A stretch of 64,000 nucleotides of DNA from Nanobdellota archaeon (GCA_021818905.1 JAKASS010000003.1:10445-74444); one strand, 5' to 3'. Positions 5,428 through 59,610 are shown, counted from the first letter of the stretch. The notes: generated by a model not told the origin, from the sequence alone. Made by a program: numbers and translations.

Positions 5428-6532
5428 TACGCTTGTGCATAAGTGCTTTATAGGATCACTGCTTCTGCAAGGATATGGCGTCTAATATCGCTAAAAACAG
5501 GGTAGAAAGGAGTGGAGGCTGCCTTGACAAACGGAGTAAACCATATGACAAGGGATCGTCGCCTCCAGAAATGTGAGGCAGTGATAGGTAATATAGTCGA
5601 CTGGAAGCAAAATGAGCGCCCTGCGCTGCTTTCAATGGACGAAGACGAGTCCGGGAGGCCTTTCCTTTATTCGGACGAGCTTATCACAAAGATAAGCTTC
5701 TTGAGGTCCATGTTCTGCGACAAGCTTATCCCCACCGAAGCTTTGACGAGGAGGCTTTACGGCAGCTCTCCAGACCATACCACGATAAGCAGGAGGCTTT
5801 ACCGCCTTGATGTGAAATGGATCATCGACAAGAAACGCAGGAAAGGAAGGCTCTTGGCGATAGACGCCACAGGGATGTCCATCTGCCGTACGGGAAGCTA
5901 CAGGCATTCAAAATACGGGGGAACGCCTAGATTCTGCAAACTACATGCTTTGATCGACCCCGATACCAAAGAGATCGTGGACTTAAGGGTCACCACAGAC
6001 CGCTGTCATGACAATAGGAAGTTCCGTCCCATAGTCAGGGAAGCCGCGAAAAGAGGGGACACCGTCTACGCCGACGGAGCTTATGATTCAAAGGAGAACT
6101 TTGACTATCTCGCAAGGAACGGCATCAGAAGCGGCATAAAGATAAGGAGGAACTTCTCCACCAAGGCTGGAGGGAGCTACGCCAGGCAGAAAGCCGTGAT
6201 GGAGCAGTTCGGGATATCGACTGTGCGTCTTAAGGGAAGGCTCCATTTCCTGCCTACCGAAGGGGTCGTCTTCGACAAGATAGGATACTACCAGCAAAAA
6301 TGGAAGGAAAAGGTGGGATATGGAAAAAGATGGCTGGTCGAGTCCTTCTTCTCCGCCTTCAAACGCCGCTTTGGAGAGCACGTATGCTCCCGGAGATGGA
6401 GGTCTGTGCAGAACGAGCTCAAGCTGAAGGCGATGCCTTACAATAAGCTTCTCGAAACGTAAGCCGATACGAGAAAGATGAAAGACCGCTAGCTGTGGCT
6501 ATCGCCTTCTAGGCTAGTCATGCACAGGCGTA
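5428..6532 (+). mobile_element. IS5-family insertion sequence, about 1.1 kb, with 13-bp terminal inverted repeats TACGCYTGTGCAT
   Basis: The left end is tacgcttgtgcat at 5428-5440. The right end is atgcacaggcgta at 6520-6532, which is the reverse complement with one mismatch. It encloses a single DDE transposase ORF. Confidence 0.7.
5512..6462 (+). CDS. DDE transposase, IS5 family (DDE_Tnp_1-like)
   Basis: 316 aa. Candidate DDE residues are LLAIDATG, VYADGAYD and a C-terminal KRWLVESFFSAFKRRFG block typical of IS5/IS4-type transposases. Confidence 0.75.
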   Translation: MEAALTNGVNHMTRDRRLQKCEAVIGNIVDWKQNERPALLSMDEDESGRPFLYSDELITKISFLRSMFCDKLIPTEALTRRLYGSSPDHTTISRRLYRLDVKWIIDKKRRKGRLLAIDATGMSICRTGSYRHSKYGGTPRFCKLHALIDPDTKEIVDLRVTTDRCHDNRKFRPIVREAAKRGDTVYADGAYDSKENFDYLARNGIRSGIKIRRNFSTKAGGSYARQKAVMEQFGISTVRLKGRLHFLPTEGVVFDKIGYYQQKWKEKVGYGKRWLVESFFSAFKRRFGEHVCSRRWRSVQNELKLKAMPYNKLLET

Positions 6533-16596: not shown

Positions 16597-16679
16597 TGGA
16601 CTCGGGGGGATTTGAACCCCCAGTCTTTCCCAATCTGGATCTTTGCCATGGGAACGCGGTGCCGTTGCGCCACGAGCCC
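16597..16679 (-). tRNA. tRNA-Ala(GGC) with an 11-nt insert in the anticodon arm, likely an archaeal intron; CCA is not encoded
   Basis: Cloverleaf folded by hand. Acceptor stem GGGCUCG/CGAGUCC with the G3:U70 Ala identity pair. T arm GGGGG-UUCAAAU-CCCCC. Anticodon stem UUCCC/GGGAA around the loop AUGGCA(A/U). 83 nt total. Confidence 0.65.
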
Positions 16680-35613: not shown

Positions 35614-35722
35614 TACGCGTGTGCATAAGTGCTTTATAGAATGGCTGCTTCTGCAAGGATATGACGTCTAATATCGCTAAAATAAAGTCGTATGGTAGTG
35701 GAGGCGACTTTACACAAGCCTG
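35614..35722 (+). repeat. Solo copy of the left end of the IS5-family element (TIR plus about 95 nt of 5' leader), with no transposase
   Basis: About 85-90% identical to 5428-5530 (…gtgcataagtgctttatag…ctgcttctgcaaggatatg.cgtctaatatcgctaaaa…). It lies upstream of the mazE-like gene on the same strand. Confidence 0.6.
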
Positions 35723-35782: not shown

Positions 35783-36013
35783 ATGGTAAAGGAGATCAGC
35801 ACGATACAGTTAGATAAGTCTGTCATATCGGATTTAAAGAAACTTAAAAGATCGCCCAGGGAGACGTACGTAGAATTGATAAGATACTTGATTACTCTAG
35901 CTAAAAGAGACGACCTAAAGAACCAATACGATGAATTTTTACACAAGACCCAGCAAAAAAAGATGAAAGAATTATGGGACAACAAAGAAGATGAGAAGTG
36001 GGAAAATGTTTGA
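35783..36013 (+). CDS. Putative antitoxin partnered with the MazF-like toxin
   Basis: 76-aa charged protein. Its stop overlaps the toxin start by 23 nt. Confidence 0.5.
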   Translation: MVKEISTIQLDKSVISDLKKLKRSPRETYVELIRYLITLAKRDDLKNQYDEFLHKTQQKKMKELWDNKEDEKWENV

Positions 36014-36320
36014 CCCCGGTGATGTAGTTATAACCGAGGTGCAGTTTACAGATACGTTTGAAATAAAAAGACGCCCCGCACTTGTCCTGTTCGAAGAATT
36101 TGATAATGTAGTGATAGCCGGGATAACCAGTAATACTGGCATGGAAGGAGTCTCTATATCTAAAAAGGACGGTGCTGTCAAGGATAGCGTGATAAAGTTA
36201 AATTATATTTTTACCGTTTCAACAAAAATGATTGAAAGGAAACTTTTCACATTAAACAAAGAGAAAAAGAGATTGGTCTTTCAAGAACTTACAAAACGCT
36301 TGAGCCCGCTTAACAGTTAA
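35991..36320 (+). CDS. mazF: MazF/PemK-family endoribonuclease toxin
   Basis: FDPGDVVITEVQFTDTFEIKRRPALVL... is a PemK-like N-terminal signature. 109 aa. Confidence 0.7.
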   Translation: MRSGKMFDPGDVVITEVQFTDTFEIKRRPALVLFEEFDNVVIAGITSNTGMEGVSISKKDGAVKDSVIKLNYIFTVSTKMIERKLFTLNKEKKRLVFQELTKRLSPLNS

Positions 36321-36327
36321 ATCGCAT

Positions 36328-36372
36328 TCTGTGGAGCAGATTGCCCAAAAATCGCTTTCGGAACTACTGGGA
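36328..36372 (+). repeat. Left copy of a 45-46 nt direct repeat, a candidate att-like boundary
   Basis: tctgtgGagcagattgcccaaaaatcGctttcggaactactggga, compared with the copy at 42705-42750, has 2 mismatches and 1 indel. It is immediately followed by a CTTTCGGA/TCCGAAAG hairpin. Confidence 0.6.
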
Positions 36373-36442
36373 ATCAGTACCTCCGAAAGTGAAAAATAAC
36401 AAACTTCTAACATATAAATAGTATTACCTACATTTAAACAAA

Positions 36443-36712
36443 ATGCAAGGAAAACATAAAAATCATAACTTGGTAAGGTTCGCTTGGCTTCTAATTGGAA
36501 TCGGCGCACTGATAGTTATACTGGATATCATTGGTCCTAGTGGTGGTTGCGCTGTGGGATTGCCGATTTTTCCAATAAATGCGACAAGCACCACAGGTTC
36601 TCAATGTGCGTCTTTAGCGGTAAATTATAATCCATATAATTGGTTTTTAGGTCTTGGGTTTGCGCTCATTATTATTGGTGCTGCAATAGAGATTGTTCTC
36701 TATTACCAATAA
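36443..36712 (+). CDS. Small membrane protein
   Basis: 89 aa with two TM helices. Its stop abuts the end of the IS4-family transposase. Confidence 0.4.
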   Translation: MQGKHKNHNLVRFAWLLIGIGALIVILDIIGPSGGCAVGLPIFPINATSTTGSQCASLAVNYNPYNWFLGLGFALIIIGAAIEIVLYYQ

Positions 36713-36714
36713 AG

Positions 36715-38247
36715 TTATCCGTCTGGATTCTTAGTAGCTAAAAGTCTGATAGAAAACATTCTAGCGGTTATCATCGTCTTAGTCGTCCTTATGCCTAAAA
36801 ATGCCATAATTAGTAGGTCCACCAATATCCAACAGTTGTATAATATTACTGAAAGCATAAAGTAGAAGTATCTTATAATATAGTTTATCGATGTCGTCTT
36901 GCCCCTGAAATTATACTTCTTTACACGATATCCTGTCTCAATCTGCCAACGCCTTCTGTACATATCCGCGATTTTCTGCGCAAAAAGGATGTCCTGCGGA
37001 CCTATGTCGATGTTAGTTGCAAATCCTTGTCTGCCTCGGTCGCCTTCTATGACCGCCAAGTTGAACTTGCAATCTCCCATAACTGCATTTCTTTGTATAA
37101 ATGGCGTGACTCTGGTCTTACTGTTCTTCATTGCATTATTGCTTTCCTTCATCGGCATTATAAACTTTACGTCTAGTTTGTTTAGTCTTCTTATGCACTC
37201 AGACCCTAGAAAACCTCTATCAAGAAGTATTGTACCTATATGGATTCTTTCTTTTGCAAACGACACTAATCTTTCGACTAAATCATTCTAATCGTCTTGT
37301 GGAAAGACTGGCAGGGCGAATAAAGTTAACCTTTGACCATGATTTACTATGTCAATTGTGATGAACTTGAAACACCATTTCGTGCCTCTTTCTGGTTTGG
37401 TGCCGATGATTGCTGGATGTTCGGGATTTCCGTAGAAGAACCAGGGTGTTGCGTCTATTGCTAAATCTAGTTTACGGCCCAGAATCGAGCCGCCTTTCTT
37501 AGCCATTTTGAAGACCATGTCAAACAGATCATAGAATATCCTTTGTATTTCTCCGTAATCGAACTTCTTAAGGTGGTAGAATAGCGTGTCTGCGGATGGC
37601 ATTCTTTTTGACGATGTTTCCGCCAATATCTTTGATCCGCCTTCTGCGAAGTTTTGAGTTGCTGCGATGTTTATAAGCAAACCAAGAAAATCATCTTCTT
37701 TAAAGACGGAGTTTTGCTTAATGTTAAAACTTAGTTTTTGTCTGAGTTTTGTCCTGACTAACCTGAGTAGTTCTTTTTCCTTAACATTCTTGTTTTGTAT
37801 TACGGAGTTCTCTTTGCGCAGTTCCTTTGACTTATTTTCTAAAGAAACGTCATCGAATATGATGTTAAATTTATTTGTAAGTTCTTTTATTATTGCTATA
37901 ACTTGATTAGCTAACTCTAAGATTTCTGGGTTTAGTGTAAAAATAAAGTGTGAAAAATCTCGTCGCATTGGTAAAATTACTTTATCGGCATCTTTGTCGA
38001 AACCAATGTTTATTGCATCTTCAAGATGACCATTTAGATAAACTATCAGTTTTCTCTGCGACTTAATCCCTTTAATTATCATAAAAATGTAAGCTTTGAT
38101 CAGCGAATCGGAAGAATATTTTCGCTTTGAGGATATTTTCGGTAATAAGTCAATTTGTTTTAAAATGTCGGATAACAGAAACATTTTGGATTTGGAACTA
38201 ACAAAAATCGAACGAATTTTACGCATTAACTCGTTATTTTCTTTCAT
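36715..38247 (-). mobile_element. IS4/ISH3-family transposase gene split by a frameshift at about 37266-37288 (pseudogene or programmed frameshift)
   Basis: The N-terminal ORF (37288-38247) carries LAIDATPWFF (first D). The C-terminal ORF (36715-37266) carries LLDRGF (second D) and the RWQIETGYR E-motif. The two frames are adjacent. Confidence 0.65.
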
Positions 38248-38333
38248 ACAAGTGATTTACTTACAAGTCATTCACTTATATTATAAAAACGAAAAATATA
38301 TAAGCTTTTCGCTTGTAAGTTAATAAGTGTGAT

Positions 38334-38591
38334 ATGGTGAAGTATATCCCAAAATGGTTAATAAAACGTCTAAGTAAATTATGGGCAGCGTATAAAGAAA
38401 AGGAATTTACTTTTGAGGAGGCAACAAAGGCGCTGCCTGAAGACGACCCTAGAAACTTAGCTATGGTGCTTTCTGACTTAAATAAAAGTGGGTGGATAGA
38501 AACCAAACAAGATCCAAAAAATAAGAGGAAGACCCTTTACAAAATAAAGCAAGGTTCTATCGTAAATGAGCTTATAAAAATAGAGCTTTAA
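38334..38591 (+). CDS. Small winged-helix-like protein (possible regulator of the downstream helicase-nuclease)
   Basis: 85 aa. It lies 69 nt upstream of the 958-aa gene on the same strand. Confidence 0.4.
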   Translation: MVKYIPKWLIKRLSKLWAAYKEKEFTFEEATKALPEDDPRNLAMVLSDLNKSGWIETKQDPKNKRKTLYKIKQGSIVNELIKIEL

Positions 38592-38660
38592 TTATCGTTT
38601 TAAAGCAGATGAAATTTGAAACTAAAATTAGTATTATATTAGCTTTAACTTAAGTAACTT

Positions 38661-41537
38661 ATGGGTTACTATAGCGATTCAGAATTAATTAGAAAGCTAA
38701 AGGTAAGACAACATAAAAATTATATTTCTACAAAGGAACATAAATTTGAGGGAATTTTATTTAAAAAACGGATCACTAACCCAGACGACTTGCCTGCCGA
38801 AATAAGAAAAATGGATACATTTAATAAAATACGCAATTTTTTCCCGATACAGATTAAAGCATTCGACGCCGGAATTTTAAATCACAGAAATTTAGTACTT
38901 TGCGCACCGACTGGTATGGGAAAAACTCTACCAATAGACATTTCAGCTATTAAGACCGTTGTTGATGGTCATAAAAAAGTAATATTTTTAGAACCTTATC
39001 TCGCAATAACGAACCAAAAGGTAGGAACGTTAGCTAATGAAACTTTAAATATAATTCCTGGACAATTTACTGGAGAAACGAATGATAATCCTTCTAGATC
39101 AAATATAATTTACGCCACCGCTGAAAAACTGTTTCTAGCGATACAAAATAGAGAAATCTGGTTAAATGATGTTGGTTTACTAGTTGTTGATGAATGTGAC
39201 ATTCTGAATGATATTAACCGGGGCGCAATTCTAGAAGAAGTAATTAGTTGCTTTATAACTCTATACAAAGATGCACAGATTGTGATGTTGTCGGCGACAT
39301 TATCTAATGGAGAAGATTTGGCCAAATGGATTGGGGGAACATACATAAGTGATAATACGCGTAATGTTAAGATAAAATACGAACTTTATCCGACATTTGA
39401 TTTCACTGTAGAAGAATTAAAAAAGATTGAAGAGCAAGAAAATCAAATCTTTATCACATTAGAAAATCCGATAAAACCGCTAGAAAATAAAAACCCGTCT
39501 GAAAATGAGATATTAGTTGCCACCTCCACTAGAAAGGAGGCAAAAAAACTATGTTGGAAATTACTAAAATCTAGAGGTACTCACTCATCTACTCAAGACC
39601 TTGGTAGATATTTAAGTGAATTAGGAAAAAAAATAAAAAGGGAAGCAAAGTATGGGATGGATAAGATTTCTAAGATGGTGTCTATAACCGTTCATGCTGA
39701 AGTTGCAGTTCATAACGCGGGTTTAACAAGAAAGCAAAGAACTTTAATAGAAAGCGCATTCGAAGAAAAACTTATAAAAATATTAGTATGTACCCCAACT
39801 CTAAATAGAGGAATTAATTTGCAGCTTAAAAAACTTATTTTATACAATGGAATAAAAAAAGCGGAGGGATTGATGACTGTATCAGAATTCCATCAGCTAT
39901 GTGGGCGTGTTGGGAGACCTGGTCAAGAAAACGTGGGTGAGGTTATAATATGTTGCAATAGCTTTGAGGAGATGGTCGTTGCGAAGGAGAAAATAATGGG
40001 ACGATATGAACTCGTTGAATCCAAATTAAAACCGCACATCGCAAGTTTTATTATTCTTCTTGTAGGTGCGGGATACTCTCTCAAGATAATAAGCCAAATT
40101 TTAATGAATACTCTATTCGCTTCTATGAATTTTGAGTCACCCATAGTTAAAGATTTTAATGAAGCGGCTTTGCTGTCTACTATAAAAAGTGCGCCAACAA
40201 TTTTCGATTTAATAAATGAAACGCCAAAATTAACAAAATTCGGGGAACTATGTTTTAGGTATAGTGGCTACGAACTAAAGGATATAAAAGAACTATGTAA
40301 GTCAATAACTAAGAAAGCAAAGGATGAGACACTGAATAAAAGTGATTTAATTGAGCTAATAAACACTTTGATTTCTAAAAGAAAAAGTCAACATGCGGAA
40401 TGGACTTTGCTTCTAAATGCTTGGTTAAGTGGTGATAAAAATGTTCCTAAGCCTCTAGAAACTGAAAAAACGGATTTTGGAACGAAAGACTTTAAAGAGT
40501 TTAAAAAACGATCTAAAAATATAAGTAATCTAATTTGTTCACTTATAGAATATAATGACATTGATAAATCTTCAATTTTTTGGATATTCGGATTACCAAA
40601 TTGCATTGAATTCGGGCTGGACCCTATTAAATACGGAGAGTTAGCCGCGATATCGAATAATAGAAAGCAGGCATGTTTACTTACAGAGGGTTTTGATGGC
40701 AGCATAAAAATAGCGAGCGAAAAAACGCTTAATGAATACAGAGAGATATTAGGACATAACTCATTTGCATCTTCTATGGGTATACTTAAAAAATTAAATA
40801 AAATATTAGGAAAACCGGAGCGAGTGAGCGTCGGCGAAGCAGTTAATTTTATTCATTGTCCGTTGTCGTTTTTATTAGACTATTATTACAGCTTAAAGAA
40901 TATGGAAATGCTAGAGAAAGATATACAAGAAAAAACAGAAATTGGGGGAAATGTACATAAATATATACATAAGTTCTGTGAATATTGGAATCACGTAGGA
41001 ACGATAGTAAAGGCAAAAGGGCTTACATTAGACTTAATTGGAAGAGATTCTCCTAATAATATTGACGAAATAACCTCTGCTTTTAATAATTTCTGTAATT
41101 TTTTACTATCAAATAATTTTAAAGCTGCGAACTCCTCTGAAAAAGTTATAGAAAGTAAAAAATTGGAAATTCAAGGCATATTAGATTTAGTGCTTTTGGA
41201 TTATAATAATTATTTAACATTAATAGAAATAAAATCTGGCGACTTTCAGGAATACAGATATGAACAATGGGACCAAAATCAAATTTATTTGTATTATCTT
41301 ATTTTAAGAGACTGCGACATAGATATAAAAGATGCCTTTGTTTTATATTTAAAACCTCTAACTGCGTCATATGTTGATTTAAGCGAAGAAAAATTACGAA
41401 AAATTTCTTCTTATATAGGAGCGATGCGTAATTTAATGAGTCGCGTGGACGCACTTAAAGATGAGAATCTAAGAGGACTTTGTACTTGCAGAAACTCTTC
41501 TCATAAATGCGTATGCAATCAACTTTTTGATGAATAA
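38661..41537 (+). CDS. Ski2/Hel308-like SF2 helicase fused to a C-terminal Cas4/RecB-type Fe-S PD-(D/E)xK nuclease
   Basis: Helicase motifs: Q motif FPIQ, I APTGMGKT (aa 82-89), II DECD (177-180), III SAT (211-213), IVa HNAGL (351-355), VI QLCGRVGRPG (412-421). Nuclease motifs: CPLSF (Cys733), D842/D847...E856-I-K858, Q-x3-Y (872-878), and a terminal C-x-C-x6-C-x-C (941-952). Confidence 0.7.
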   Translation: MGYYSDSELIRKLKVRQHKNYISTKEHKFEGILFKKRITNPDDLPAEIRKMDTFNKIRNFFPIQIKAFDAGILNHRNLVLCAPTGMGKTLPIDISAIKTVVDGHKKVIFLEPYLAITNQKVGTLANETLNIIPGQFTGETNDNPSRSNIIYATAEKLFLAIQNREIWLNDVGLLVVDECDILNDINRGAILEEVISCFITLYKDAQIVMLSATLSNGEDLAKWIGGTYISDNTRNVKIKYELYPTFDFTVEELKKIEEQENQIFITLENPIKPLENKNPSENEILVATSTRKEAKKLCWKLLKSRGTHSSTQDLGRYLSELGKKIKREAKYGMDKISKMVSITVHAEVAVHNAGLTRKQRTLIESAFEEKLIKILVCTPTLNRGINLQLKKLILYNGIKKAEGLMTVSEFHQLCGRVGRPGQENVGEVIICCNSFEEMVVAKEKIMGRYELVESKLKPHIASFIILLVGAGYSLKIISQILMNTLFASMNFESPIVKDFNEAALLSTIKSAPTIFDLINETPKLTKFGELCFRYSGYELKDIKELCKSITKKAKDETLNKSDLIELINTLISKRKSQHAEWTLLLNAWLSGDKNVPKPLETEKTDFGTKDFKEFKKRSKNISNLICSLIEYNDIDKSSIFWIFGLPNCIEFGLDPIKYGELAAISNNRKQACLLTEGFDGSIKIASEKTLNEYREILGHNSFASSMGILKKLNKILGKPERVSVGEAVNFIHCPLSFLLDYYYSLKNMEMLEKDIQEKTEIGGNVHKYIHKFCEYWNHVGTIVKAKGLTLDLIGRDSPNNIDEITSAFNNFCNFLLSNNFKAANSSEKVIESKKLEIQGILDLVLLDYNNYLTLIEIKSGDFQEYRYEQWDQNQIYLYYLILRDCDIDIKDAFVLYLKPLTASYVDLSEEKLRKISSYIGAMRNLMSRVDALKDENLRGLCTCRNSSHKCVCNQLFDE

Positions 41538-41587
41538 ATCTTATATTATTTAATTTTAATGCCAACGCTCTCTGGTCCAATTATTAT

Positions 41588-41617
41588 CTGAGCACAGAAT
41601 TAACACATGGTGCTCAG
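41588..41617. terminator. Hairpin between convergent genes (candidate bidirectional terminator)
   Basis: CTGAGCAC-14 nt-GTGCTCAG with T-rich flanks, between the helicase-nuclease (+) and the multi-HTH gene (-). Confidence 0.35.
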
Positions 41618-42582
41618 TTTTCATAGGTTCTCCTATTTTTTAGCGCCATTTGTATTTCGCTTATTTTTCGCTTACTAAAACCATTAGGTTGTTTGATATC
41701 CAAGAAAGCTTTTATAGCAACTGCTTCTTTTCCTGGAAGACAGTAAATTGCCACCTTGCCGATTATTACTGATTTAATGAGTGCATTTTTCCCTATTCGC
41801 TTGAATATCATTATATTTTTGCGGTTAGATATTACATACCCTCTGTTTATCAGATTGCACAGGATTTGAAAATAAACTCCGCCTATCCTACTGTGTTTTC
41901 CTTTTAAGTCAGACGTCCACCTGACTATTGTCGGATAGCTCACTTTTAGCATGTTAGATAGTTCAGTCTTCTGAACACCGCTCTTTATCAGCCGTCTTAC
42001 CTTTTTCTTAAACTTGTCTGGATACCTTTTGAGTTCTGGCGCGCGGTTTAGCCACTTGTTAAGGGTTTTTAGGTTTATTCCTAGCTCCGCTGCGGTCTTA
42101 AGTCTGGACTTTCCTGAAGCGACTAAATCTAGCGCTTTTTTTCTAAATTCGTCCGTATAGATTACTTGCTTGTTTGATATCGGTATGTTCCATCTGTTTA
42201 TAGTGCTTATCGCTATTCCAAGACGCCCAGCCGTTTCGGTCCTGCTGAGCCCAGAAGAAAGCATTTCTACGGCTCTTTGTTTTACGCTTTCTGGTAACCT
42301 GTGATAGGTTGAAATGCCATAAAGCCATTTTGCAAGAGTTCCGTACGGGATGCCAAGTTCCGCTGATATTTTGTATCTCGACTTGCCTTCTAAAGCAAGG
42401 GCTTTAGCTTTCTCTTTTACCTCTTGCGGATAAATTCGTGCGTTAATACTTGGTATCTGCCAAGTACTTAACGTGCCTAGGGGTACACCTAATTGCAGAG
42501 CAGTAGCATATTTTGTCATTCCTGACGTTATAAGTTCCTTTGCTTTGCTTCTGATATCGTCGGGATACTTGCTTCCTTTCAT
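41614..42582 (-). CDS. Protein with five tandem about 45-aa helix-turn-helix repeats and a C-terminal domain of unknown function
   Basis: The repeats follow the pattern x.K.KA.EL..SG.S....A..LGI...TL..W (transposase-type HTH). No DDE, tyrosine-recombinase or serine-recombinase catalytic motifs were seen. The gene is next to the att-like repeat and tRNA-Leu. Confidence 0.5.
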   Translation of the reverse strand: MKGSKYPDDIRSKAKELITSGMTKYATALQLGVPLGTLSTWQIPSINARIYPQEVKEKAKALALEGKSRYKISAELGIPYGTLAKWLYGISTYHRLPESVKQRAVEMLSSGLSRTETAGRLGIAISTINRWNIPISNKQVIYTDEFRKKALDLVASGKSRLKTAAELGINLKTLNKWLNRAPELKRYPDKFKKKVRRLIKSGVQKTELSNMLKVSYPTIVRWTSDLKGKHSRIGGVYFQILCNLINRGYVISNRKNIMIFKRIGKNALIKSVIIGKVAIYCLPGKEAVAIKAFLDIKQPNGFSKRKISEIQMALKNRRTYEN

Positions 42583-42704
42583 AGTATTTCATGAAAACGC
42601 ATATTAAAACCGTCTTCGGTCGTTGCCCAAAACAGGCTATTTTTAGAGGGAGCTTTTTGCGAACCGATTTTCAGAAATGGGCACTGGCGGGCAATCAGTA
42701 ACGT

Positions 42705-42750
42705 TCTGTGAAGCAGATTGCCCAAAAATCACTTTCGGAACTACTGGGGA
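42705..42750 (+). repeat. Right copy of the 45-46 nt direct repeat, abutting the 3' end of tRNA-Leu
   Basis: tctgtgAagcagattgcccaaaaatcActttcggaactactgggga. It ends 1 nt before the tRNA discriminator base. Confidence 0.6.
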
Positions 42751-42751
42751 A

Positions 42752-42836
42752 TGCAGGGAGAGGGATTTGAACCCTCGAAGGCCTAAGCCACTAGCCCCTG
42801 AAGCTAGCACGTTTGACCGGGCTTCGCTATCCCTGC
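42752..42836 (-). tRNA. tRNA-Leu(CAG), class II with a long variable arm; CCA is not encoded
   Basis: Cloverleaf folded by hand. Acceptor stem GCAGGGA/UCCCUGC. Anticodon stem CUAGC/GCUAG around the loop UUCAGGG. T arm GAGGG-UUCAAAU-CCCUC. 85 nt. Confidence 0.75.
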
Positions 42837-42880: not shown

Positions 42881-43279
42881 TTATTTGTACCCTAACGTAT
42901 TTTTTACAGTTATTACGAACTCTTCGGCGTTCTTCAAAGTGTTTTCTACGGCTACTTTATCAGGTTCTATTGTCACATCATATGTACTAGCTTGTCTTAT
43001 AGCCAATGCGCGATTCAAATATCTAGAAAATTTCTTTTCTAATTTTCCCGTTTTTATGTAATAGTTACTGAAAGAGGCTACAACGCCTCGGTGCGTTTTT
43101 GGAGGCCTTATTCTTGCGCTTATTAGCGCTGCGGTGGCGGAATAGAACATTGCATAATAAGCCAGGCTTGCGGCCGGTCTAAGCAGTGAGTTCTCAAAAT
43201 TAAGATAGGACTCCTCGAGTGTCTTATCCGCTAGTTTTACGTAGCTTTCCAGTAAGCTTTTCGAATACACTTCTTCCAT
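42881..43279 (-). CDS. HEPN-domain protein (toxin half of a HEPN-MNT pair)
   Basis: 132-aa alpha-helical protein whose reading frame overlaps the upstream MNT gene. Confidence 0.55.
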   Translation of the reverse strand: MEEVYSKSLLESYVKLADKTLEESYLNFENSLLRPAASLAYYAMFYSATAALISARIRPPKTHRGVVASFSNYYIKTGKLEKKFSRYLNRALAIRQASTYDVTIEPDKVAVENTLKNAEEFVITVKNTLGYK

Positions 43280-43721
43280 AAAGTCCTATTGCGTCTTCAC
43301 TAACATTTCTTATAAACGGTGTGCCTAGCATCACCGATTTCCTCAAAGTTTCTGGCGTTACAAAAAATAAAGATATAAAAAACGCGAAATCGTTCTCCAA
43401 TTCGAAGTCTACCAAGGTGTCATATGCCCTAGACGTGAAATTTAGGTCATTAGCATATTTAGTTAAGACCATGATGTCTATGTCGCTGCTTCTTTTGGCA
43501 TGGCCTCTCGAAACAGAGCCATAGAGCACTATTGCGTCTATCTTTTTGCCAAATTTCAAAGATAGTCGCCCCGCAAATTCTTGCGCTACCCTTCTATATT
43601 CTAAGCTGATGGTCTTTGCCATATTTTTCATTGGGTGCTTAAACAATTTAAGCTTTTTAGATTTTAGAAGGCGCATTCTAATTGCTGTGAAGCCTAAGCC
43701 ACTGGCCCCTGAAGCTAGCAC
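43224..43721 (-). CDS. Minimal nucleotidyltransferase (MNT antitoxin-like)
   Basis: GSVSRGHAKRSSDIDI matches the GS-x9-13-D-x-D motif of pol-beta-superfamily NTases. The true start is probably an internal Met (MKNMAK). Confidence 0.65.
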   Translation of the reverse strand: MLASGASGLGFTAIRMRLLKSKKLKLFKHPMKNMAKTISLEYRRVAQEFAGRLSLKFGKKIDAIVLYGSVSRGHAKRSSDIDIMVLTKYANDLNFTSRAYDTLVDFELENDFAFFISLFFVTPETLRKSVMLGTPFIRNVSEDAIGLYGRSVFEKLTGKLRKTSG

Positions 43722-43747
43722 ATTTGACCGGGCTTCGCTATCCCTGC
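43692..43747 (-). repeat. Degenerate duplicate of the 5' half of tRNA-Leu, in direct orientation to the intact gene
   Basis: 56 nt with 2 mismatches relative to 42781-42836 (tRNA positions 1 to about 56). The mismatches break the anticodon and D stems. Confidence 0.7.
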
Positions 43748-50931: not shown

Positions 50932-51333
50932 TCAACTTTCAATCACAGACGCTAAAAGGTTTATCAACTTTTTAACTATCGGCAGCGTCTCTTCCACCTC
51001 CGCTTTGAAGTTATTTTTTATCGGAGAAAATCCATAGCCAGCCATATTCCGTGATGCCAGCAATTCGCTGTATGTCCTTATTATCTCGGGCAGATTTGCT
51101 TTCAACGCAGAAAACTTTTTTTTATTATTTACCAAGTCTTTGAATTGATCTATTACGTCGTGCTTCTTTGGAAAATTTACCTCCTCTTCCAGTAAAACGG
51201 CCTTCACGCTTATCTCCAACGCCATTTCAAGAGAGTACAAAGCTATGCTAAAATTACGACCGTTCGCCTCGAGTTCTGCGGATAAGAGCCAATCATTCGC
51301 CATCCGCATCGCTTCTTTAGCTACGTTTTCCAT
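50932..51333 (-). CDS. HEPN-domain protein (pair 2)
   Basis: 133 aa and alpha-helical. Paralogous to 60498-60923 (EMALEISVKAVLL versus EMSLELAIKAVML). Overlaps the MNT gene by 13 nt. Confidence 0.55.
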   Translation of the reverse strand: MENVAKEAMRMANDWLLSAELEANGRNFSIALYSLEMALEISVKAVLLEEEVNFPKKHDVIDQFKDLVNNKKKFSALKANLPEIIRTYSELLASRNMAGYGFSPIKNNFKAEVEETLPIVKKLINLLASVIES

Positions 51334-52043
51334 GATAACATTTCGCCTTTTTCTGAAAATCGCCTCTCGTGTTTTATCCTTCGCATCGACATCAAAAAAT
51401 CGGCAAGTGTTTCATTGCAGTCATAGAGTATCAATCCATAGTCCAGAAGATCCAGATATATCGGCCTGAATGTCTTTAAATCTTCGATGGCCAATAGCAA
51501 AACGCTTATCCTCAAGTGGAATCCTCGCTTCACGAAAGCGTCCCGCAGAGGTTCTATTTGCTGTTGTATTTTTGAAAGTCTGCTACGTAAATTTCTGGTC
51601 GCGTCTTCCGCTATCACGAGAATGTCTATATCGCTGTATTCATTGAACGTCCCCTTTATTACGGAACCGAAAAGCATGATGCCGACTACGTCGCGTTCCT
51701 TTGAAGCGGACTTGACAAAAGTCTCTATATAATTTCGTATGTCGGCTGGTAAGGCGATAAAGCGCAGCTGTTTACCCATAAAGTCTTCTATGATCTCGTT
51801 AAACGTGATCTTTCTGCCCGCCGCCTTCGAAAACTCTTCTTTCAGCGCCTTGATCTTAGAATAAGCCGTTGCGCGCAGCAATAGCTGTTTATTCTTTTCC
51901 ATATTAATTATATATATAATTTTATATATAAACTTTACCATGTTAAATTCTTTAAGCGATAAAGGCCGCCTGTTCGCACAGGCTAAATTATTAAAATGAC
52001 GGGCGCCGCAAGTGTATATGGCATGTCCGTTCTGCGACGACAC
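51321..52043 (-). CDS. Minimal nucleotidyltransferase (pair 2) with an N-terminal extension
   Basis: GIMLFGSVIKGTFNEYSDIDILVIA. Paralogous to 60911-61504. Confidence 0.65.
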   Translation of the reverse strand: MSSQNGHAIYTCGARHFNNLACANRRPLSLKEFNMVKFIYKIIYIINMEKNKQLLLRATAYSKIKALKEEFSKAAGRKITFNEIIEDFMGKQLRFIALPADIRNYIETFVKSASKERDVVGIMLFGSVIKGTFNEYSDIDILVIAEDATRNLRSRLSKIQQQIEPLRDAFVKRGFHLRISVLLLAIEDLKTFRPIYLDLLDYGLILYDCNETLADFLMSMRRIKHERRFSEKGEMLSWKT

Positions 52044-59378: not shown

Positions 59379-59413
59379 AACAGAATCCTATGAGTTTTTA
59401 CTATTATTAACTT

Positions 59414-59499
59414 TGCGCCGACCGGGAATCGGACCCGGATTAATGAATTTTCCTCATCGCTGTGGGAATCCATTGTTCTGACCGTTAAACCATCGGCGC
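59414..59499 (-). tRNA. tRNA, probably Gly(CCC), with a 14-nt insert in the anticodon arm likely to be an archaeal intron; CCA is not encoded
   Basis: Cloverleaf folded by hand. Acceptor stem GCGCCGA/UCGGCGC. D stem GUUU/GAAC. Anticodon stem AUGGA/UUCAU around UUCCCA. T arm CCGGG-UCCGAUU-CCCGG. The T-loop sequence is atypical. Confidence 0.5.
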
Positions 59500-59610
59500 A
59501 CTTGATGAATTAGATCGTATTATTATTTATAGGATCTTTTTATTGTTGATCCAAAATATTCTGTAACTGCATAGCAAGTATTTAAAAGTCTGGCGTATTA
59601 AATTATTATT

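Follow-up and report, generated by a model that had tools for sequence, protein, structure and literature searches.

A window of 64,000 nucleotides from a Nanobdellota archaeon (GCA_021818905.1, JAKASS010000003.1:10445-74444; "the window" denotes this whole stretch, and positions are counted from its first letter) contains at 38661-41537 a gene whose product is predicted to combine, in one chain, a Hel308-type helicase (two RecA domains, a winged helix and a ratchet) with an appended PD-(D/E)XK nuclease like those of Cas4, Dna2 and AdnAB. One N-terminal and four C-terminal cysteines of this helicase-nuclease are placed as for a Cas4-type [4Fe-4S] cluster, which is predicted to be present. The protein may well be a self-contained, ATP-driven helicase-nuclease that degrades DNA, moves horizontally as a single gene and serves to destroy the DNA of invading viruses or plasmids, a function that is proposed tentatively. 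It had been predicted beforehand from the DNA that a Hel308/Ski2-like helicase of superfamily 2 (SF2) precedes a nuclease of the Cas4/RecB family with a cysteine cluster, and this description was borne out by profile searches and by a structure model.

The open reading frame (ORF) of 958 aa and every motif listed for it in the original prediction were found at the expected residues and are conserved in homologues. The first RecA domain carries the Q motif (Q64), GMGKT (with K88), DECD (177-180) and SAT (211-213), and the second carries HNAGL (351-355) and QLCGRVGRPG (412-421; QxxGRxGRPG). The residues of the nuclease are C733 followed by proline, H766, D842, E856-I-K858, Q874...Y878 and C941-x-C943-x6-C950-x-C952. 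Pfam matches were obtained for DEAD (aa 62-216, E 2e-24), Helicase_C (aa 343-421, E 2e-9) and PDDEXK_1 (PF12705; aa 721-950, profile positions 1-237 of 247, E 2.7e-9, 37.8 bits against a gathering cut-off of 22). NCBIfam Hel308-type models matched aa 43-529 (E 1e-42 to 2e-62) and the Cas4 model TIGR00372 matched aa 816-928 (E 6.5e-11). An identical protein (P0001) is present in public assemblies. Homologues align from residue 1, which supports the start codon, and the gene call is therefore sound. In an alignment of five members K88, D177, D180, Q412, R416 and R419 are invariant in the helicase half, as are C733, H766, D842, K858, Q874, Y878 and all four C-terminal cysteines in the nuclease half, while position 856 varies between E and D. 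Judged from the sequences, such conservation lies far beyond chance, and since the catalytic and Walker residues are invariant at 31-37% identity, both enzymatic halves appear to be under selection. In one member from Marsarchaeota (P0097; locus L078, 723-3590) helicase motif II reads DDFD instead of DECD, while the motifs of its nuclease are intact; its ATPase may be altered.

Sequence matches of the helicase in the PDB included Hel308 2va8 (E 2e-44, 155 bits) and Hjm 2zj2, and hhalign against a Hel308-like protein of Methanomicrobium gave a probability of 100 over aa 43-543, i.e. over both RecA domains and the winged helix. Sequence methods gave no match for aa 544-720, and a PDB profile search with the C-terminal half returned nothing at E <= 1, so that fold comparison was needed. 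Based on an alignment of 4 sequences, AlphaFold gave a full-length model of low quality (predicted local distance difference test, pLDDT, 48), and its Foldseek matches were taken as a hint only; it was superseded by a model of aa 440-958 with a mean pLDDT of 90 and a predicted template modelling score (pTM) of 0.83. The latter was built from 55 sequences, comprising the C-terminal halves of 6 family members and 49 stand-alone Cas4-like proteins, whose catalytic columns line up with each other. A mixed alignment of 92 sequences (A5), in which the C-termini of ordinary helicases were forced onto the nuclease columns, was excluded from modelling. In the aa 440-958 model the C-terminal region adopts the PD-(D/E)XK nuclease fold, with Dna2 and AdnAB as the structurally closest proteins, and PDDEXK_1 scored above its cut-off; the check by profile and structure that had been proposed for this region thus came out in favour of a nuclease. 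The fifth helicase domain is probably helix-hairpin-helix-like. Family members show almost no variation in a loop of the ratchet-like domain (aa 588-612, window 40422-40496; W..SG..KPL..GT.DFK), for which the model has its lowest confidence (pLDDT about 70) and no counterpart was identified in Hel308.

For aa 43-716 the best matches in both sequence and fold were to Hel308 and Hjm (PDB 2P6R, 2VA8 and 2ZJ2); this part shows all SF2 motifs including HNAGL and QxxGRxGR and the same order of RecA1, RecA2, winged helix and ratchet, then probably helix-hairpin-helix. The protein differs from Hel308 in its identity of about 20-25%, in that sequence profiles end at aa 543, in its location on an island instead of a housekeeping locus, and in 240 additional aa of nuclease that are known from no Hel308. 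The curated Hel308 scores were not reached (211 bits versus 887 for PRK02362 and 189 bits versus 1200 for NF040935). Archaeal Hef likewise joins an N-terminal SF2 helicase to a C-terminal nuclease in one archaeal protein, but the nuclease of Hef is of the XPF/Mus81 type, whereas that of the window protein is of the Cas4 type; the Hef model matched aa 75-179, within the helicase only, with 22 bits against a cut-off of 610. These scores agree with the earlier claim that the protein is not an ordinary orthologue of Hel308/Hjm or Hef. With Cas4 and stand-alone Cas4-like proteins (TIGR00372, PF12705; fold matches to SSO0001, type I-C Cas4 and ACE1) the nuclease shares one N-terminal cysteine, GxxxH, D...(E/D)xK, QxxxY and a C-terminal cysteine cluster; unlike Cas4, it is fused behind a helicase and has no adjoining cas genes. 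The family shows the spacing C-x-C-x5-6-C-x-C and an invariant histidine, in contrast to the three cysteines (C-x2-C-x5-C) of most aligned stand-alone Cas4-like proteins. RecB, AddA and AdnB are superfamily 1 (SF1A) motors in heteromeric complexes, whereas the motor of the window protein belongs to SF2 (DEAD and Helicase_C; a match to the SF1 family AAA_19 was insignificant, E 0.11) and has no universally conserved partner. Dna2 differs in having its nuclease first and an SF1B helicase of 5' to 3' polarity.

It had also been claimed that known proteins uniting a helicase with a RecB-type nuclease use SF1 motors or place the nuclease first. This claim was too strong. Hna, an anti-phage system, consists of a single protein in which an SF2 (DinG-like) helicase at the N-terminus is joined to a PD-(D/E)XK nuclease at the C-terminus (PMC13381803), and the same claim is countered by UvrD-Cas4-like fusions and by Cas4-like genes linked to the SF2 helicase COG1205, both of which were described in defence contexts (Hudaiberdiev et al. 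2017, PMC5704561). Although Hna shares the one-chain arrangement and the order of SF2 helicase and PD-(D/E)XK nuclease, it is bacterial, its DinG/XPD-like helicase has no Fe-S cluster, and the nuclease consists of a minimal core of the PD-(D/E)XK type. A relationship to Hna was seen at no closer level than the superfamily: the best 25 of 52 PADLOC matches did not include Hna, and no DinG or XPD protein occurred among the sequence matches listed, in which the helicase matched Hel308, Ski2 and Brr2. The UvrD-Cas4-like fusions, which occur in restriction-modification neighbourhoods (PMC5704561), and the COG1205 pairs resemble the window protein in coupling a helicase to a Cas4-like nuclease of PF12705; they are often located outside CRISPR loci and were predicted to serve defence or repair. 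The motor of the former is, however, an SF1 UvrD and not of the Hel308 type, and COG1205 (YprA) is encoded by a neighbouring gene, is not fused and belongs to a different SF2 family. Full-text literature searches found no published description of a Hel308-type helicase-Cas4 fusion, and neither a survey of archaeal Ski2-like helicases nor the phylogenomics paper on Cas4 (PMC5704561) mentions one, in keeping with the original prediction that the fusion is undescribed. Fusion of a helicase with a PD-(D/E)XK or Cas4-like nuclease is familiar as a general idea, and the version with a Hel308 motor is the new part.

The family is extremely rare. A word-indexed search of 5.8 billion proteins yielded three other full-length or near-full-length relatives with 33-36% identity. 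An exhaustive HMMER scan of 1.84 billion representatives at 50% identity, carried out with a profile of aa 530-958 in order to keep ordinary helicases from swamping the results, matched P0001, the P0002/P0004 cluster, P0096, P0097 and the fragment P0098, i.e. about five clusters at 50% identity. P0099 was discarded as a repetitive sequence aligned in 23 short stretches, and the remaining matches represented stand-alone Cas4-like proteins with lengths of 118-438 aa, in nearly all cases 150-300 aa (E 1e-8 to 1e-3). Pairwise identities within the family are 31-37%, with one pair at 58%. All members are from assemblies of Parvarchaeota (DPANN) or Marsarchaeota or from unnamed metagenome contigs, several homologues as well as the host of the window deriving from one ENA assembly series. 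P0097 is named "DEAD/DEAH box helicase [Candidatus Marsarchaeota archaeon]" at NCBI, P0163, which resembles P0003 closely and shares its 90%-identity cluster, has the same name for "Candidatus Parvarchaeota", and one family fragment was annotated as Cas4 by JGI. No relative was found among 185,579 GTDB species representatives scanned by two N-terminal peptide patterns only. In IMG/VR and JGI metagenomes only helicase domains of unrelated Ski2-like proteins were matched, many of them in giant-virus bins, and a degenerate HCPLSFLLK pattern gave no match in IMG/VR. Searches by tblastn gave helicase-only matches and no family member in the PLSDB plasmids, and no match to the C-terminal half in GenBank phages.

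The host of the window is a Parvarchaeota-like DPANN archaeon, because its elongation factor 2 (EF-2) is 77-83% identical to proteins of "Candidatus Parvarchaeota" and "Candidatus Acidifodinimicrobium" and the archaeal proteins aCPSF1 and Dph6 are also encoded. The helicase-nuclease gene lies in a segment of low G+C content (GC) bounded by 45-nt direct repeats, which form one of only three families of direct repeats of at least 40 nt in the window (Table 1). The GC of the gene itself is 0.325 and that of the whole window 0.418, with a drop from 0.42 to 0.33 across 38-42 kb. A tRNA-linked mobile island, as had been suggested, is supported by the repeats beside tRNA-Leu and by the GC of 0.33-0.35 versus 0.42, although no integrase is present: between the repeats no integrase or recombinase was recognised, but only the split DDE transposase of an insertion sequence (IS) and helix-turn-helix (HTH) proteins. 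The transposase is either a frameshifted or a decayed copy, and a search for terminal inverted repeats of the IS gave none. A search for the empty site with the exact tRNA-Leu sequence gave no match in GTDB representatives. The winged-helix ORF upstream of the helicase-nuclease is a possible regulator and has no counterpart in the other homologue loci; the convergent multi-HTH protein gave PHROG matches to DNA-binding, transposase and small-terminase families.

A homologue in another Parvarchaeota assembly (locus L082), 35% identical to the window protein, lies directly after tRNA-Gln and opens a stretch of about 10 kb with a GC of 0.27-0.34. The flanks, with a GC of 0.41-0.44, contain the housekeeping genes for aminoacyl-tRNA synthetases, ribosomal protein S17e, CDC48 and V-ATPase. 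The low-GC stretch represents another foreign island beside a tRNA, which differs from that in the window; the hosts are related. The genes of this stretch are the helicase-nuclease, an overlapping 430-aa ORF and then six ORFs without a Pfam, PADLOC or PHROG match. The overlap of the 430-aa ORF (L082 12802-14094, L002 3124-4416, L003 3261-3734) with the helicase-nuclease is at the stop codon of the latter. Between two members of the Parvarchaeota clade this ORF is 50% identical; it matched nothing in Pfam, PADLOC or PHROG, and the window has no copy of it. An assumption drawn from L002 (GC 0.325), that the family is native to low-GC genomes, was withdrawn, because, judged by the longer L082, most of L002 is island and the flanks have a GC of 0.41-0.44. 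When all ORFs were compared by blastp, the helicase-nuclease was the only gene common to the window island and to L082, L074 and L078. The gene thus seems, from its sequence context, to move horizontally as a single unit, because it lies on tRNA-adjacent low-GC islands in two Parvarchaeota-like DPANN genomes, and its sparse, island-borne, single-gene distribution indicates an accessory function.

Hel308 (structure 2P6R) translocates 3' to 5' and threads single-stranded DNA past its ratchet, the strand leaving near the last domain, and in RecB, AddA and AdnB the strand that leaves the 3' to 5' motor enters a C-terminal nuclease. By analogy, the motor of the window protein would load on a 3' single-stranded tail, a gap or a fork and translocate 3' to 5', and the strand that exits past the last helicase domain would pass on to the tethered nuclease domain. 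In this way the enzyme could processively unwind and degrade branched replication intermediates or DNA with free ends, a design in which the logic of RecB and AddA would be rebuilt on an SF2 motor. With lower confidence, the DNA destroyed may be that of invading viruses or plasmids, for the benefit of the host or of the carrier island, by a one-gene system like Hna or RecBCD. A still more speculative and rather doubtful proposal is that the family is an archaeal single-polypeptide counterpart of RecBCD and AddAB, with a Hel308 motor and an Fe-S Cas4 nuclease, which travels alone on integrative islands among DPANN and other acidophilic archaea as a one-gene system against viruses and plasmids.

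Defence against invading DNA, which the original prediction had also suggested, is a plausible role and the reading that we favour. The best PADLOC matches of the protein are to HamB helicases and Cas4, PemK and HEPN-nucleotidyltransferase pairs (PDC-M05/PDC-S09) flank the island, and a related PemK pair is near a Marsarchaeota homologue; Hna (PMC13381803) and the UvrD-Cas4 fusions in defence loci (PMC5704561) were counted as precedents. Several observations weigh against this reading. The suggested polarity, substrate and hand-off geometry are taken from relatives, and the N-terminal half has no confident model. The island has no integrase, and its mobility is deduced from repeats and composition only. 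In metagenome-assembled genomes of Marsarchaeota the gene is found at local GC between a cold-shock gene and genes for lipid synthesis (CarS-like and amino-acid-kinase fold), a setting that looks chromosomal rather than island-like, and in the Parvarchaeota clade the 430-aa ORF may encode a clade-specific partner, in which case the system there would perhaps not consist of one gene. Both the Marsarchaeota context and this putative partner are a misfit to a simple, universal one-gene defence system. The original prediction had proposed that homologues be checked for a location in defence islands, and here the outcome was negative: the neighbours of the homologues matched no PADLOC or PHROG model, and toxin-antitoxin pairs were the only defence-like neighbours.

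That the protein instead serves the mobile element itself, an integrated plasmid or virus remnant, as an enzyme of replication, recombination or genome processing is less likely in our view but a reasonable alternative. The Hel308/Hjm-type motor would then migrate branches while the Cas4-like exonuclease resects ends for the replication, integration or recombination of the element. In many archaeal viruses, replication and recombination are served by Cas4-like nucleases and Hjm-type helicases of their own. The gene is located inside foreign tRNA-adjacent islands in two genomes, its best PHROG match is a viral family named "Holliday junction branch migration helicase" (E 7e-52), Cas4-like genes are common in mobile elements (PMC5704561), and ORFs without a Pfam match, such as those of the Parvarchaeota island, are usual for archaeal viruses and plasmids. 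However, no integrase, replication initiator or capsid gene could be recognised in either island, no family member was found in IMG/VR or GenBank phage records, and the islands have only the helicase-nuclease in common, which therefore behaves as cargo and not as a conserved backbone. Somewhat less likely again, though reasonable as well, is a DNA-repair enzyme of the host, i.e. a Hel308 paralogue of genome-reduced acidophilic archaea that gained a nuclease, processes stalled forks or resects double-strand breaks, and replaces the two-protein arrangements of other archaea (Hel308 or Hef with separate nucleases; HerA-NurA). Repair would fit the closeness of the helicase to the repair helicases Hel308/Hjm and Pol-theta and of the nuclease structure to the repair nucleases Dna2 and AdnAB, as well as the housekeeping-like chromosomal context with local GC in Marsarchaeota and the DPANN or small-genome hosts. 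The family is, however, far too sparse for lineage-wide repair, the two-pattern scan of GTDB representatives yielded no relative, and in two Parvarchaeota genomes copies that are only 35% identical lie on islands of foreign composition at different tRNAs.

Two further explanations start from known immune systems. In Hachiman, a Ski2/Hel308-like helicase (HamB) works with a nuclease of the PD-(D/E)XK superfamily (HamA), and the window protein could be a fusion of the two in one chain. HamB models indeed had the best PADLOC scores (up to 103 bits), and HamB 8vx9 was among the PDB sequence matches (E 2e-18), but these matches cover the generic helicase core only and are far weaker than those to Hel308 (155 bits for 2va8, 211 bits for PRK02362). 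Hachiman, moreover, consists of two proteins with a DUF1837 nuclease, whereas the nuclease here is a PDDEXK_1 domain of the predicted Cas4 Fe-S type, and no match to DUF1837 (HamA) was found in the protein or its neighbours; a fused Hachiman is thus very improbable. Scarcely credible is an accessory role in CRISPR adaptation, as a prespacer-trimming Cas4 with an attached helicase: the score for TIGR00372 was 42.4 bits against a family cut-off of 65, and no cas1, cas2 or other cas gene was observed among the annotated neighbours within about 12 kb in the window (26-52 kb) or at the homologous loci L002, L074, L078, L079 and L082, where no dedicated scan for CRISPR arrays was run.

Table 1. Positions in the window of the helicase-nuclease gene, the encoded domains and the features of the surrounding island
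Feature	Position	Strand	Basis or remarks
Helicase-nuclease gene	38661..41537	+	ORF list, ATG start, 958 aa and stop; Pfam DEAD, Helicase_C, PDDEXK_1
SF2 helicase core, aa 43-440	38787..39980	+	NCBIfam Hel308, PDB sequence matches, hhalign
Winged-helix domain, about aa 457-534 (Hel308 domain 3)	40029..40262	+	Boundaries approximate
All-helical ratchet-like domain, about aa 539-652 (Hel308 domain 4)	40275..40616	+	Includes loop W588..SG..KPL..GT.DFK
Helix-hairpin-helix-like domain, about aa 655-716 (equivalent of Hel308 domain 5)	40623..40808	+	Inferred assignment
Cas4-type PD-(D/E)XK nuclease with cysteine cluster, aa 721-958	40821..41534	+	C733, H766, D842, E856, K858, Q874, Y878, C941, C943, C950, C952
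Left 45-nt direct repeat	36327..36371		43 of 45 bases identical to 42704-42748
Right 45-nt direct repeat	42704..42748		3 nt from the 3' end of tRNA-Leu
Inserted low-GC segment, 6.3 kb	36372..42703		GC 0.35; 89-aa ORF, split IS transposase, winged-HTH gene, helicase-nuclease, multi-HTH gene
tRNA-Leu (CAG)	42752..42836	-	ARAGORN; Rfam RF00005, 52 bits
Winged-helix ORF, 85 aa	38334..38591	+	69 nt upstream of the helicase-nuclease; Pfam HTH_27, E 3e-4, below cut-off
Protein with repeated HTH_23/transposase-type HTH, 322 aa	41614..42582	-	Convergent with the helicase-nuclease; Pfam HTH_23, E 4e-20
Split IS-type transposase	36715..38247	-	319-aa ORF (no Pfam match) and 183-aa ORF (C-terminal part of DDE_Tnp_1)

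Further elements could be observed near the island and elsewhere in the window, which contains at least three pairs of the toxin-antitoxin type. A PemK toxin-antitoxin pair is located just outside the island (35783-36320). Its toxin and small antitoxin are 52% and 42% identical, respectively, to those of a pair at 595-1120 of locus L079, at a distance of 3.4 kb from the helicase-nuclease homologue of Marsarchaeota; the likeness could be a coincidence or reflect a common variable-region neighbourhood. Beyond tRNA-Leu, a HEPN gene (42881-43279) and a nucleotidyltransferase gene (43224-43721) match the PADLOC candidates PDC-M05 and PDC-S09. This cassette of 855 nt is bracketed by a 56-nt copy of the 5' part of tRNA-Leu (42781-42836 and 43692-43747; 96% identical), and looks like a second, separate insertion at the other side of the same tRNA-Leu gene. 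Another pair of HEPN and MntA-like nucleotidyltransferase genes adjoins the EF-2 gene (50932-52043, minus strand). A 92-nt direct repeat (84% identical) is present at 5428-5519, at the start of an IS-like ORF of 316 aa (5512-6462), and at 35614-35705, to the left of the island and immediately upstream of the PemK pair; the repeat is possibly what is left of an IS end. A tRNA at 16597-16679 (minus strand) was matched by Rfam and missed by ARAGORN, and ARAGORN assigned a four-base anticodon to a tRNA at 59413-59500 (minus strand). Probably, these two archaeal tRNAs contain introns or have loops of an unusual kind.

Fusions of a helicase with a nuclease are a recurrent feature of DNA repair and immunity, as in RecB, AddAB, Dna2, Hna and UvrD-Cas4. 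To our knowledge, all described Fe-S Cas4-type fusions have an SF1 motor or the nuclease first. The use of a Hel308 motor, of archaeal and eukaryotic type, makes the present family a natural experiment on the coupling of a 3' to 5' SF2 translocase to an end-processing nuclease. The defence and repair repertoires of its hosts, Parvarchaeota-like DPANN archaea and Marsarchaeota, are poorly known, and we know of few defence systems besides CRISPR and restriction-modification in DPANN and acidophilic archaea. If the protein does protect against viruses, it would be a compact, one-gene addition to the short archaeal list; if it is an enzyme of repair or of element replication, it would be an example of how reduced genomes or mobile elements merge two activities in one chain.

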